Positions 1 to 62,520 are shown, counted from the first letter of the stretch. The stretch: DNA of 64,000 nucleotides from Candidatus Nanoarchaeia archaeon (GCA_038874075.1 JAVZDD010000001.1:136701-200700), one strand, 5' to 3'. Program-made: numbers and translations. The notes: generated by a model from the letters alone, not told the origin.

Positions 1-976
1 GTGGAGGTTCCAAGTATTTTGCTATTCCTGATACGGGTACCTCTCGATAACCACCTGTAATGGATTCAATTCTTTCGTATCTTCCTAATATTGGTATATT
101 GGCATGATAAAGCATAATACCCCAAAATTGGAGACTTGCAACTAATGAAGCAGTTAAAATTACTGGAATGTTGCTTGTGTACATGAAATTTATTGGCCAT
201 CTTATACCGAAACCTCTGACCCTCCCAAAGCTCAATGGAACCTGAACGTTTATGGATTGTAGAAATGTTGCTAATGCAAAAACAATTAAAGTTGCGATGA
301 TGGATAGAAGCGGCCATGTGATTTCAATATATCTTCCTTGAATCAGTAAAGATATTATTTTGGGAATAGCGCCATAGGGAACCGAAGGATCGCTTGGGTC
401 TGAGAATGGGGAAAATCCTTGAACAAATATTTCCCTAGCAACACCTGCTACAATAAATAATGAAATACCTGAACCTATACCCCACTTACTTGATATCTCA
501 TCAAGCAACATTAGTATGAATCCACCTAAAATAAGTTGTAGTATCATAATTGCTGAAATGAGAATTGAAGGATACGCTGGAGGTAATGCTCCACTGAGTA
601 CATACATTCCATTTTCAAGAAAAATAAATGCAACTGAAAAAAGTTTATGTAGACCCTCATACATATTTTTTCCTTCTGGTGTTTGTGTATCTATCTTTAT
701 TATTTCGGCTCCCATCATTAATTGTAATACAATACTACCTGTAACGATCGGTCCAATTCCAAGCGTGATGAGAGAGCCAAATTGGGCTGCTAATAAAACA
801 GCAAGTGCTTCAAAACGGGAAACATAATTTTTATTTAAACCATAAAGTGGAATGAGAGAAAGTACAAAGTACAGAATTAGAACGATTGAAGTCCATGTCA
901 ATTTCTCTTTGAGGCTTAATCTCTTTTTTGGTTTTTCAACTTCAGGTAATAAAAATAATAAATCTTTCAATGCCAA
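1..976 (-). CDS. secY: Preprotein translocase SecY, N-terminal about 325 aa; gene runs off the window edge
   Basis: Reverse-strand translation from TTG/GTG at 976-985 gives LALKDLLFLLPEVEKP...GSLITLGIGPIVTGSIVLQLMMGAEII, the SecY signature. It lies immediately downstream of L15, the conserved L30-L15-SecY order. The ORF track misses it because it has a non-ATG start and no in-window stop. Confidence 0.8.
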   Translation of the reverse strand, partial: MALKDLLFLLPEVEKPKKRLSLKEKLTWTSIVLILYFVLSLIPLYGLNKNYVSRFEALAVLLAAQFGSLITLGIGPIVTGSIVLQLMMGAEIIKIDTQTPEGKNMYEGLHKLFSVAFIFLENGMYVLSGALPPAYPSILISAIMILQLILGGFILMLLDEISSKWGIGSGISLFIVAGVAREIFVQGFSPFSDPSDPSVPYGAIPKIISLLIQGRYIEITWPLLSIIATLIVFALATFLQSINVQVPLSFGRVRGFGIRWPINFMYTSNIPVILTASLVASLQFWGIMLYHANIPILGRYERIESITGGYREVPVSGIAKYLEPP

Positions 977-7564: not shown

Positions 7565-7828
7565 TCACCTTTTCAATCTATCCTCTGGTCTGCCAATTAA
7601 AAGATTCCCATCTATCCTAATCTTTCTACCTTCAATCTCAAATTCAAATATCGTGTCTTTTTTTGGAACCATTTTTTCCCTTCCCATTTGCTCGATTACC
7701 AGCATGTTCTTTGTCTCGTCCACTACTTTCCCTACAATTTTTTCGTATGAGTTATTTATGCTTTTCTTTACCTTCACTTTTAGCCCTATCAGTTCATGTC
7801 TGGTGATATTCTTCGGACTTATCATCAT
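7565..7828 (-). CDS. rnp1: RNase P protein component 1 (Rpp29/Pop4)
   Basis: 87 aa, HELIGLKVKVKKS...GKVVDETKNMLVI; conserved archaeal position between SUI1 and S17. Confidence 0.7.
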   Translation of the reverse strand: MMISPKNITRHELIGLKVKVKKSINNSYEKIVGKVVDETKNMLVIEQMGREKMVPKKDTIFEFEIEGRKIRIDGNLLIGRPEDRLKR

Positions 7829-26840: not shown

Positions 26841-26944
26841 TGGGGCTGCAGGGATTTGAACCCTGGTTTTTGGGTTTCTTCATCTTTAAATCTGCGCTCC
26901 AGTCTGCTGGAGCCCAATGTCCTACCGTGCTAGACTACAGCCCC
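26841..26944 (-). tRNA. tRNA-Trp (anticodon CCA) with an about 31-nt intron at the canonical 37/38 position
   Basis: Reverse complement GGGGCUG..UUGGG-CUCCAG[CAGACUGGAGCGCAGAUUUAAAGAUGAAGAA]A-CCCAA..CAGGG-UUCAAAU-CCCUG-CAGCCCC-A. The intron 5-prime end (CUGGAG) pairs with the anticodon region (CUCCAG), as in BHB-type introns. Confidence 0.8.
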
Positions 26945-39063: not shown

Positions 39064-39108
39064 CTGCCTAAAAAAAGCTTTTATTGTTTAAAAGTTTTTC
39101 TAAAATAG

Positions 39109-44619: not shown

Positions 44620-44871
44620 TTGATGGAATACGATATTGAATTAAAAAAAATTAAAAATGAAATTAAAAAAGCGAAAAGGATTTTGATACAGCTTCCAGAA
44701 GGAATTAGGAATAATGCATGTAAAATTGCTTGTGAAATTGAAAAAGAGAGAAAAATCGTATTTATATGGGCTGGTAGTTGCTTTGGCGCATGTGACATAC
44801 CAAATATACCTAAGAAGTTTGGAATTGACTTATTAATACATTTTGGACATAGTAAATTAAGGGGTGGGAGT
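44620..44871 (+). pseudogene. dph2: Remnant of diphthamide synthase Dph2 (N-terminal about 85 codons only), reading in-frame into the rnhB start region
   Basis: MMEYDIELKKIKNEIKKAKRILIQLPEGIRNNACKIACEIEKERKIVFIWAGSCFGACDIPNIPKKFGIDLLIHFGHSKL matches the Dph1/Dph2 N-terminal region (hLQFPEGL ... GACD ... LIHFGHS), but a full Dph2 is about 340 aa. The frame runs directly into the RNase HII N-terminus. Confidence 0.5.
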
Positions 44872-45580
44872 TTGGTTCTGAAAAAGAAAGAAACGATTTG
44901 CGGCATTGATGAGGCTGGTAGAAAGTTAAACAATGTTTAACTTACCAAAAGGCCCTCTGATCGGAAGTCTGTACATTTGTGGAATTTTAGTAGAAAAAGA
45001 TCGAATTAAAGAGTTAAAAAATATTGGTGTAAAGGATTCAAAAGAACTAAAAAAGAATGAAAGAGAAGAATTGGAATCAAAAATTAAGAAAATTGCAAAG
45101 GATTTTAAGATAGTCAAAATTACGCCAAAAGAAATAGACGAAAGGGCTTCTGTTGGTATGAACTTAAATCATTTAGAAGCAATAAAAATGGCTGAAATTA
45201 TAAATACGTTGAAACCGGACGTGGCAATCATTGATTGTCCATCACATAACACAAATGCGTTCAAGAAATTTTTGGAAAAATATCTTGAGCATAAATGTAA
45301 ACTAAAAGTCGAAAATTATGCAGATGAAAGTTATGTTACTGTTGGAGCTGCTTCAATTCTAGCAAAAGTGGAAAGAGACCGGGAGATTGAAAAAATCAGT
45401 AAAGAGTTAGGGATAGAATTGTACAATGGTTATCCGAATGATGAAAAAGCATTAGAATTGGTAAAAAATCTTGAGAAAATTCCTGGTGCTAGGAAATACA
45501 TAAGAAGCAGTTGGTACACATACAAAAGAATAGAAGAAGAAAAAAATTTAAGGAAACAAAAGAAGATTCTGGATTTCTAA
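44872..45580 (+). CDS. rnhB: Ribonuclease HII with reading frame interrupted after ...ICGIDEAGR by a 28-nt insertion (44923-44950). May be split, intron-containing or a pseudogene.
   Basis: Frame 1 ends ETICGIDEAGR-KLNNV*. Frame 2 restarts MFNLPK-GPLIGSLYICGILVEKDRIKELKNIGVKDSKEL...VTVGAASILAKVERDREIE (RNase HII core). Deleting exactly 44923..44950 yields the canonical GIDEAGRGPLIGSL in frame. Confidence 0.6.
44917..44950 (+). other. 28-nt helix-bulge-helix-loop element inserted in rnhB. It supplies a TAA stop for the upstream part and an ATG for the downstream part.
   Basis: GGUAG-AAA-GUUAAAC-AAU-GUUUAAC-UUACC: 5-bp helix with one G-U, 3-nt bulge, 7-bp helix, 3-nt loop; perfect inverted repeat GTTAAAC aat GTTTAAC at 44925-44941. 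Confidence 0.55.
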
Positions 45581-61948: not shown

Positions 61949-61987
61949 AATAAAAATAATAAAGAGGTAAAAAATAAATGTATTGAT

Positions 61988-62059
61988 GGGCTTGTGGTCT
62001 AGTGGTATGACGTTTCCCTCACACGGAAAAGGTCGCCGGTTCGATTCCGGCCAAGCCCA
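61988..62059 (+). tRNA. tRNA-Val (anticodon CAC)
   Basis: GGGCUUG-UG-GUCU..UUUCC-CUCACAC-GGAAA..GCCGG-UUCGAUU-CCGGC-CAAGCCC-A. Confidence 0.85.
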
Positions 62060-62068
62060 TGTGAGAAT

Positions 62069-62365
62069 ATGGCAAATGAAGAATTTTTTATAAAAATTGG
62101 AAATATAGAAGAGATAAACAGAAGAGTAAATGAACTAAAAAATTTGTTCAGGGGACTTGATGCATTGGAGAGAGAGATAAGGGAACTAAGGGAGCGAAGG
62201 GAAAAGTTTAAGGAGGAAGTGATTGAAAAAATAGAGCGGCTAATCAACGAATTGGATGAACTAGAAAGGAATTTACCGAGAGAAGAGGAAGAGAAAAAAA
62301 CAGAAGACGTGGGGAAACTAAGAAAAGAACTCGAAGATCTGAGGGAAAGTCTAACTTCACTGTAA
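62069..62365 (+). CDS. Small coiled-coil protein (98 aa) wedged between tRNA-Val and tRNA-Leu
   Basis: Continuous heptad-like E/R/K/L-rich sequence; starts 10 nt after tRNA-Val, ends 2 nt before the tRNA-Leu region. Confidence 0.3.
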   Translation: MANEEFFIKIGNIEEINRRVNELKNLFRGLDALEREIRELRERREKFKEEVIEKIERLINELDELERNLPREEEEKKTEDVGKLRKELEDLRESLTSL

Positions 62366-62367
62366 AA

Positions 62368-62520
62368 GCGGGGGGAAGCGGGGGTAACTTAACAATCGTT
62401 AAGTCCCCAAAGCCAAGCGGTCTAAGGCGATAGGCTCAAGAGCAGGTATCAGCTGAATGAAATGATGTTGTGATACCTATTGGCTTAGTGCCTTCGAGGG
62501 TTCGAATCCCTCCCCCCGCA
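62368..62520 (+). tRNA. tRNA-Leu (anticodon CAA) with a 34-nt canonical 37/38 intron (62441-62474) and an additional ~24-nt insertion after the acceptor 5-prime strand; GCGGGGG acceptor strand duplicated
   Basis: 3-prime half GAGGG-UUCGAAU-CCCUC-CCCCCGC-A. Anticodon arm AUAGG-CUCAAG[intron]A-CCUAU. D-arm GCC-AAGCGGUCUAA-GGC. Leu-type variable arm GGCUUAGUGCC. 5-prime acceptor GCGGGGG occurs at 62368 and 62378. Between 62385 and 62410 lies a GGGG-UA-ACUUAAC-AAUC-GUUAAGU-CCCC helix-bulge-helix-loop. Confidence 0.65.

Follow-up and report, generated by a model that had tools for sequence, protein, structure and literature searches.

How can the BHB motif of a tRNA intron form from acceptor-stem nucleotides against a competing 7-bp acceptor stem? 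This question is raised by a tRNA-Leu(CAA) locus in an archaeal DNA stretch of 64,000 nucleotides (the whole stretch analyzed, here called the window), in which the 5' acceptor sequence GCGGGGG is present twice, at 62368 and 62378, a doubling that the original prediction had reported correctly. A decoy within the leader is a simple and testable answer. We propose, with a probability of about 0.5, that the upstream copy, GCGGGGG(G), is a functional cis-acting decoy for the 3' acceptor strand CCCCCGC (62513-19), a model built on the locus sequence and its computed folds.

A tRNA-Leu gene predicted to contain two introns

The locus is organized as follows:

62368..62377 (+), leader copy: GCGGGGG plus G, spacer AA; proposed decoy pairing with 62513-62519
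62378..62385 (+), exon 1: tRNA positions 1-8, GCGGGGGU (strict BHB scan, and ARAGORN spliced product with U8)
62386..62410 (+), predicted 8/9 intron: noncanonical BHB, 25 nt (BHB scan, ARAGORN, and a homologous 16-nt intron in relatives)
62411..62440 (+), exon 2: tRNA positions 9-37, with A9 and the D arm GCCAAGCGGUCUAAGGCG (Rfam alignment, ARAGORN cloverleaf)
62441..62474 (+), predicted canonical intron: 34 nt, at 37/38 (ARAGORN, hand analysis)
62475..62520 (+), exon 3: tRNA positions 38-73, with the long variable arm UGGCUUAGUGCCUUC (Rfam, ARAGORN)

Exon 2 also contains the 5' strand of the anticodon stem (AUAGG), C32, U33, the anticodon CAA at 62437-39, and G37, and exon 3 also contains the 3' strand of that stem (CCUAU), the T arm GAGGG-UUCGAAU-CCCUC, the acceptor 3' strand CCCCCGC at 62513-19, and the discriminator A62520. 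We assign 62378-62520 with high confidence to a tRNA-Leu(CAA) gene that is predicted to carry two splicing-endonuclease (BHB) introns, a level of confidence that combines the reading of the leader copy as a functional decoy with that of the leader copy as a neutral scar.

When both introns are removed in silico, the mature 5' end is G62378 and ARAGORN recognizes a canonical class II tRNA-Leu(caa) of 84 nt without CCA, and not the 85 nt given in the original prediction. Removal of 62386-62410 alone leads ARAGORN -i to report tRNA-Leu(caa) with a 34-nt intron, in agreement with the intron proposed earlier at 37/38 (62441-62474). The spliced product begins GCGGGGG-U-A-GCC..., with U8, A9, and a 3-bp D stem, and all of the tRNA-Leu class II features are present by Rfam and ARAGORN, including CAA in a 7-nt loop, U33, a purine at 37, a long variable arm, the T loop UUCGAAU, and discriminator A73. 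The unspliced locus yields no tRNA with ARAGORN and is missed by Rfam at the gathering threshold; in E-value mode, the Rfam alignment is confined to tRNA model positions 9-63 and scores 22.8 bits, below the 29-bit threshold, with 37 inserted nucleotides falling in the anticodon loop. A simpler gene model, which the original prediction had named as the alternative, was thus not found, and its proposal of a canonical intron plus a second element for endonuclease removal is sustained by the hBHBh' motif and by recognition of the spliced tRNA. The locus is not an assembly artifact, as Logan SRR27170999 and GCA_025920765.1, which were assembled independently, agree on it at every base. A split or permuted tRNA was also ruled out, because the three exons are contiguous and collinear.

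Incomplete tRNA complements have been described for DPANN archaea, with a call for manual curation (PMC5829648). The tRNA-Leu gene is a worked example for such curation, being an essential tRNA in a reduced DPANN genome that standard predictors miss.

The intron between positions 8 and 9

A compact scanner identifies a strict 3-4-3 BHB at 62380-62411 with an inner helix of 7 bp, a loop of 4 nt, and an outer helix of 2 bp, and the full hBHBh' pattern at 62378-62413 reads GC / GGGG / gua / 7-bp hairpin / CCCC / aaa / GC, with two 3-nt bulges and a 4-bp helix. The outer helix h pairs G62378-C62379 with G62412-C62413 (G1C2 with G10C11), and the central helix H pairs GGGG at 62380-83 (G3-G6) with the intronic CCCC at 62405-08. 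The bulges are G62384-U62385-A62386 on the 5' side and AAA (62409-11) on the 3' side, and the inner helix h' is ACUUAAC/GUUAAGU with the loop AAUC. The minimum free energy (MFE) fold of the locus contains this BHB. The intron itself thus consists of A (the third nucleotide of the 5' bulge), the hairpin ACUUAAC-AAUC-GUUAAGU, CCCC, and AA (the first two nucleotides of the 3' bulge). The hairpin GGGG-UA-ACUUAAC-AAUC-GUUAAGU-CCCC had been described accurately in the original prediction, and the second element is indeed present, although its length is exactly 25 nt (62386-62410, or equivalently 62387-62411 through the repeated A) and not about 24 nt.

Cleavage of BHB motifs reportedly follows the second nucleotide in both bulges (Thompson & Daniels 1990; Xue et al. 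2006). Applied here, this rule excises 62386-62410 and joins GCGGGGGU to AGCC..., placing U8-A9 between the acceptor and D stems; applied to the rnhB gene discussed below, it gives the boundaries seen against an intron-less ortholog. Compact strict BHB motifs are not rarer than chance in the window (33% GC), with 4 loci compared with a mean of 3.2 hits in shuffles, and the weight of the evidence therefore lies in the context: excision leaves precisely the two nucleotides expected to separate the acceptor stem from the D stem. Two further compact 3-4-3 motifs, at 639-672 (+) and 39071-39101 (+), were judged to be chance occurrences; their central helices consist of A/T pairs only. A permissive BHB scan was discarded, with hundreds of chance matches, and the hairpin-motif search suggested earlier (TTAAC..GTTAA) yields no further copies within the window.

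The combination of a canonical and a noncanonical BHB intron in a DPANN tRNA is of a well-known kind, and it is the proposed leader decoy that is new. The same 3-4-3 motif is found in other noncanonical and multiple BHB introns of archaeal tRNAs (Marck & Grosjean 2003; Sugahara et al. 2008; ARMAN-2, PMC3239211; PMC4090602, PMC4033280, PMC12397907), and known multi-intron archaeal tRNAs likewise have a non-37/38 intron together with the canonical one, a DPANN host, and a relaxed (hBH/BHL) variant, seen here in a relative. Position 8/9 is absent from the intron positions listed in reviews (3/4, 20/21, 22/23, 25/26, 29/30, 30/31, 45/46, 53/54, 56/57, 59/60 'etc.'; PMC4090602, PMC4033280, PMC12397907), which are not complete catalogues.

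Conservation of the locus in relatives

Relatives were found by synteny using homologs of the neighboring TrkA_N and BFN genes, and they comprise two related sequence types, one represented by L004 and L126 (neighbor proteins 71 to 81% identical to those of the window) and the other by L125 (79%). The tRNA-Leu gene is kept only in these three and not in L003, L005, L146, and L147. All three exons are 100% identical in the window, L004, and L125, and the 3' flank diverges between the window and the relatives. The 8/9 intron is at the same site throughout but is 25 nt in the window and 16 nt in the relatives, which lack the 5' arm and loop of the hairpin; in helix H, the CCCC of the window is replaced by CCCU, changing a G-C to a G.U pair. 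The canonical intron similarly differs in length, with 34 nt in the window and 22 nt in the relatives. The leader GCGGGGG is kept at 7 of 7 positions in L004, L125, and L126, with a spacer of GAA in the window and A in the relatives. As judged from these alignments, identical exons with drifting introns are the expected behavior of real introns.

The L004-type 8/9 intron has no 5' bulge in its MFE fold and corresponds to a relaxed bulge-helix-loop; if so folded, it would need a broad-specificity endonuclease. Splicing of BHB introns calls for EndA, with broad specificity where motifs are relaxed, and for a ligase of the RtcB type. DPANN archaea are known for both disrupted tRNA genes and broad-specificity splicing endonucleases (PMC3239211, PMC5829648).

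The canonical intron

The canonical intron is a relaxed BHB in which helix H consists of C32-G, U33.U, C34-G, and A35-U, with an inner helix of 3 bp, bulges A36 G37|A and A U|A38, and C32-G as the A-I-equivalent pair. The nucleotides proximal to the splice sites (AGC...UGUUGYGAU) are kept in L004 and L125, with a 12-nt indel in the middle. We note that the insertion of ~12 nt found only in the window creates a perfect 8-bp helix, AGGUAUCA/UGAUACCU (62445-62452 / 62472-62479, +), absent from L004 and L125; in the MFE fold this helix hides the 3' splice site and forms at the expense of the anticodon stem.

The tRNA-Trp intron of Euryarchaeota encodes a C/D box sRNA. The canonical intron of tRNA-Leu was considered and rejected as a C/D box sRNA (RUGAUGA/CUGA), with Rfam snoRNA scores of 17 to 19 bits compared with gathering thresholds of 40 to 48, and UGAUG not conserved in L004.

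Two copies of the acceptor strand

The segments 62368-62377 and 62378-62387 form a 10-nt tandem repeat with 9 of 10 positions identical (GCGGGGGGAA / GCGGGGGUAA). Elsewhere on both strands of the window (128 kb), GCGGGGG occurs only as the complement of the 3' acceptor strand 62513-19, and shuffles lead to an expectation of 0.67; with this rarity, the second copy 10 nt upstream is not a chance occurrence. The original prediction had left the exon boundary ambiguous between the two copies, but the BHB geometry fixes the 5' cut at 62385|86, which makes the 62378 copy the exon strand and places the 62368 copy in the 5' leader. The position 8 residue leads to the same assignment, as U8 is near-universal in tRNA.

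We also considered whether the 62368 copy could be the true acceptor strand, with the second copy inside a larger intron at about 62375-62410. ARAGORN does accept a GCGGGGG+AAGCC... construct, and the MFE fold pairs the 62368 copy with the 3' strand, but position 8 would then be A or G and not U, in the window and in L004 alike. Moreover, no BHB can be drawn at that 5' splice site, because the AAA bulge and the CCCC/GGGG helix are fixed and dictate G62384-A62386 as the opposite bulge. We regard this arrangement as extremely unlikely. A third intron of 10 nt was likewise rejected on U8 and BHB geometry, and no second BHB for removal of the leader by EndA is present, with just 2 bp between the GAA spacer and the AAA bulge.

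The leader copy as a candidate decoy

With the 62378 copy as the exon strand, the 8/9 BHB and the 7-bp acceptor stem compete for the same G run, and the BHB would be lost unless the 3' acceptor strand has another pairing partner. In ViennaRNA partition functions of the window locus with its leader, the central BHB helix has a probability of 0.95 and pairing of the leader with the 3' strand a probability of 1.00; with the leader deleted or scrambled, helix H is lost (0.00) and the true acceptor stem takes over (0.99). This dependence on the leader is the same at 37, 60, and 80 C. L004 behaves similarly in ViennaRNA, with 0.98 to 1.0 for helix H and 1.00 for the leader:3'-strand pairing when the leader is present, compared with 0.02 to 0.04 for helix H and 0.98 for the true acceptor stem when it is deleted or scrambled. 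In nascent-transcript folds without the 3' strand, helix H forms with the true G run (P=0.95-0.99). These folding results suggest that the leader copy turns a transient co-transcriptional BHB into a stable conformer.

In the proposed mechanism, the BHB would form co-transcriptionally and then remain a stable conformer in the full-length precursor, with the leader copy at 62368 holding 62513-19 until splicing is done. After splicing, the true 5' strand would exchange with the decoy on the 3' acceptor strand, and RNase P would then cut the leader off, irreversibly. The decoy probably originated when a short segment at the 5' end of the tRNA was duplicated in tandem. After in silico splicing, the nearest-neighbor model favors the leader:3'-strand helix (0.87 to 1.00) over the true acceptor stem. 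Because the spliced intermediate still prefers the leader helix, removal of the leader would need tertiary tRNA folding together with kinetic trapping by RNase P, a step that we assume.

The same two-intron gene could instead carry the leader copy as a functionless scar of a short tandem duplication, generated by microhomology or slippage, with splicing occurring co-transcriptionally ahead of synthesis of the 3' acceptor strand. This is a plausible account, which we hold at well below even odds. It fits the leader and the exon/intron start being a 10-nt tandem repeat with 9/10 identity, and the behavior of nascent transcripts, in which the BHB helix is at 0.95 to 0.99 without the 3' strand; since the BHB forms co-transcriptionally without the decoy, the decoy may be dispensable. 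The leader also hampers the spliced intermediate in silico. A useless G-rich competitor of the acceptor stem should, however, be selected against, and the 7-mer is intact in two lineages in which the rest of the duplicated unit is deleted and the neighboring sequence has diverged. The sample behind the decoy evidence is small, with two closely related lineages plus one distant analog, and conservation of the 7 nt is statistically weak, having a chance probability of ~5% given how far the flanks have diverged.

The distant analog is a tRNA-Cys(GCA) of a Woesearchaeota archaeon (L060, SLQZ01000012.1, 6323-6490, +), which has an 8/9 BHB-type intron as well as a canonical intron. Its 8/9 geometry is as in the window (GC/GGAG/GUA...CUCC/AGA/GC), and its leader repeats tRNA positions 1-30 of the same gene in degenerate form and without the intron (P<2e-4). 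The central helix has a probability of 0.91 with this leader copy and 0.00 with the copy scrambled. As a decayed copy of the tRNA 5' third, the leader resembles duplication debris, as the scar account would have it. That account would nonetheless require two independent duplications, in different DPANN lineages and isotypes, both to have occurred beside an 8/9 intron, with none in about 20 other tRNAs. A perfect second copy of the 5' strand is present in 0 of those approximately 20 archaeal tRNAs in the fetched loci, which are intron-less or have anticodon-region introns; these controls comprise three tRNAs of Woesearchaeota/Nanobdellati without an 8/9 intron and about 17 other archaeal tRNAs, five of them with anticodon-region introns.

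Scans for additional examples had varied outcomes. An 18-nt D-arm pattern scan of genome contigs was unspecific, with bacterial tRNA-Cys and Woesearchaeota L028, L053, L060, and L096 among the matches listed. Metagenome scans gave 0 matches for Leu tRNAs with the window D arm and, for 8/9-type insertions, nothing but tRNAs of eukaryotes and bacteria whose upstream matches were due to chance. The viral-contig scan returned only GC-rich phage coding sequence.

Returning to the decoy reading, a leader copy of the acceptor 5' strand, acquired through partial tandem duplication, may be a general need of introns whose BHB borrows an acceptor-stem strand. We put this broader claim forward tentatively, at a little short of even odds. 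If true, the decoy would be an undescribed part of archaeal pre-tRNA architecture and would impose an order of splicing, strand exchange, and RNase P cleavage. Our literature search found no description of a conserved leader copy of an acceptor strand that is needed computationally for a BHB. The closest comparison is with the split tRNAs of Nanoarchaeum equitans (Randau et al. 2005), in which, as summarized in two reviews (PMC4033280, PMC4090602), the leaders of two transcripts pair in trans and form a helix beside the BHB. They share with the tRNA-Leu locus a pairing of non-tRNA leader sequence that enables endonuclease processing, but the tRNA-Leu leader duplicates an exon strand and would act in cis on the 3' acceptor strand, outside the BHB.

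A predicted BHB intron in rnhB

A second gene in the window, coding for RNase HII, is also predicted to have a BHB intron:

44922..44949 (+), predicted rnhB (RNase HII) BHB intron: 28 nt (BHB scan, and an intron-less ortholog)

Helix H pairs UGGU (44916-19) with ACCA (44944-47), the bulges are AGA and AAA, and the inner helix h' is 9 bp, AAGUUAAAC/GUUUAACUU, with the loop AAU. Excision by the cut rule restores GIDEAGR|GPLIG in frame. The ortholog P0022 (on L136, from the same sample as L004; 73% identical) reads MSKKICGIDEAGRGSLIG without interruption, and the DNA alignment with it has a clean 28-nt gap exactly at the predicted boundaries. The absence of the intron from the ortholog, with the gap at the predicted cuts, identifies the intron as a lineage-specific gain, and the match of the boundaries validates the cut rule. 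The rnhB intron thus varies in presence among relatives. The 8/9 intron of tRNA-Leu is shared by all three lineages. We note that a short ORF upstream of rnhB in two lineages (44620-44871, + in the window) matches only the first ~58 positions of Diphthamide_syn (Dph2); in the window its frame stays open as far as rnhB exon 1 and joins it, and in L136 (138-380) it is a separate ORF of 80 aa.

An alternative for both genes is that tRNA-Leu is a decaying pseudogene, and rnhB likewise, disrupted by small hairpin insertions that stay in the RNA. Standard predictors do miss the tRNA-Leu gene, and the 28-nt insertion breaks the rnhB reading frame, but each insertion is framed by a perfect BHB motif, and cutting at the predicted sites gives back the spacing of the tRNA and, at GIDEAGRGP, the reading frame of rnhB. 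The downstream rnhB ORF is intact (215 aa, 73% identical to its ortholog), and the tRNA exons are 100% identical in three lineages in which the introns and flanks have diverged. Decay is therefore very unlikely, and the reading as two genes with BHB introns is preferred.

The insertions in tRNA-Leu and rnhB were originally said to resemble each other strongly and to suggest a family of mobile hairpins. They do share an architecture, but the likeness in sequence is only modest; the two introns have UUAA(A)CAAU(C)GUU(U)AA in common, at a score reached by 2 to 6% of random AT-rich hairpin pairs (P about 0.02-0.06). The gain in rnhB is consistent with mobility, but two members do not establish a family. 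Taken together, the tRNA 8/9 and rnhB introns suggest that small BHB hairpin introns are spreading in this lineage, into a protein-coding gene included, for which cbf5 is the only precedent in the literature searched. Transposition of introns among tRNA genes is reported for Thermoproteales (Fujishima et al. 2010, as cited in a review, PMC4090602). By that account, there are likewise similar small hairpin introns in unrelated genes of one genome, with rnhB here a recent gain; the modest similarity, the limitation to two copies, and the location of one of them in a protein gene differ from the Thermoproteales case as there described.

The BHB intron in the cbf5 pre-mRNA of Crenarchaeota varies in presence and absence among close relatives (Watanabe et al. 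2002; Yokobori et al. 2009, PMC2738675) and, apart from an intron in the 5' UTR of HVO_1309, is the only one reported in archaeal mRNA (PMC7714728). The rnhB intron is similar in being within a protein-coding region and in its presence or absence between close relatives, but it is in the gene for RNase HII, in a DPANN archaeon and not a crenarchaeon, and is only 28 nt long. After cbf5, rnhB would be the second family of protein-coding genes in which a BHB intron interrupts the coding region.

Host and genomic neighborhood

Neighboring proteins carry the names "Candidatus Parvarchaeota archaeon" (NCBI) and "Candidatus Jingw..." (nr), which points to Ca. Jingweiarchaeum, a thermophilic DPANN lineage of the Tengchong hot springs, as the probable host. 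The GC content is 31 to 36%. An optimal growth temperature of about 66 C has been estimated for the ancestor of Ca. Jingweiarchaeum (PMC10134863).

The tRNA-Leu gene is tightly packed with a tRNA-Val gene and an ORF of 98 aa (61987-62520, +), with the ORF starting 9 nt past tRNA-Val and stopping 2 nt before the leader copy; its stop codon abuts the leader copy in L004 and overlaps it in L125. There is no TATA-like or A/T-rich box in the 40 nt upstream of tRNA-Leu that could represent its own promoter, and we infer from this that the precursor is probably a tRNA-Val-ORF98-tRNA-Leu co-transcript. The window also contains an RNase P/MRP p29 gene (7565-7828, -) between SUI1 and rpS17 in the ribosomal protein operon, which indicates that this DPANN lineage keeps a ribonucleoprotein RNase P. 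To our knowledge, Nanoarchaeum equitans is without one. A tRNA-Trp(CCA) gene at 26841-26944 (-) is missed by default ARAGORN and scores 59.7 bits with Rfam, and it has a canonical intron of ~31 nt.
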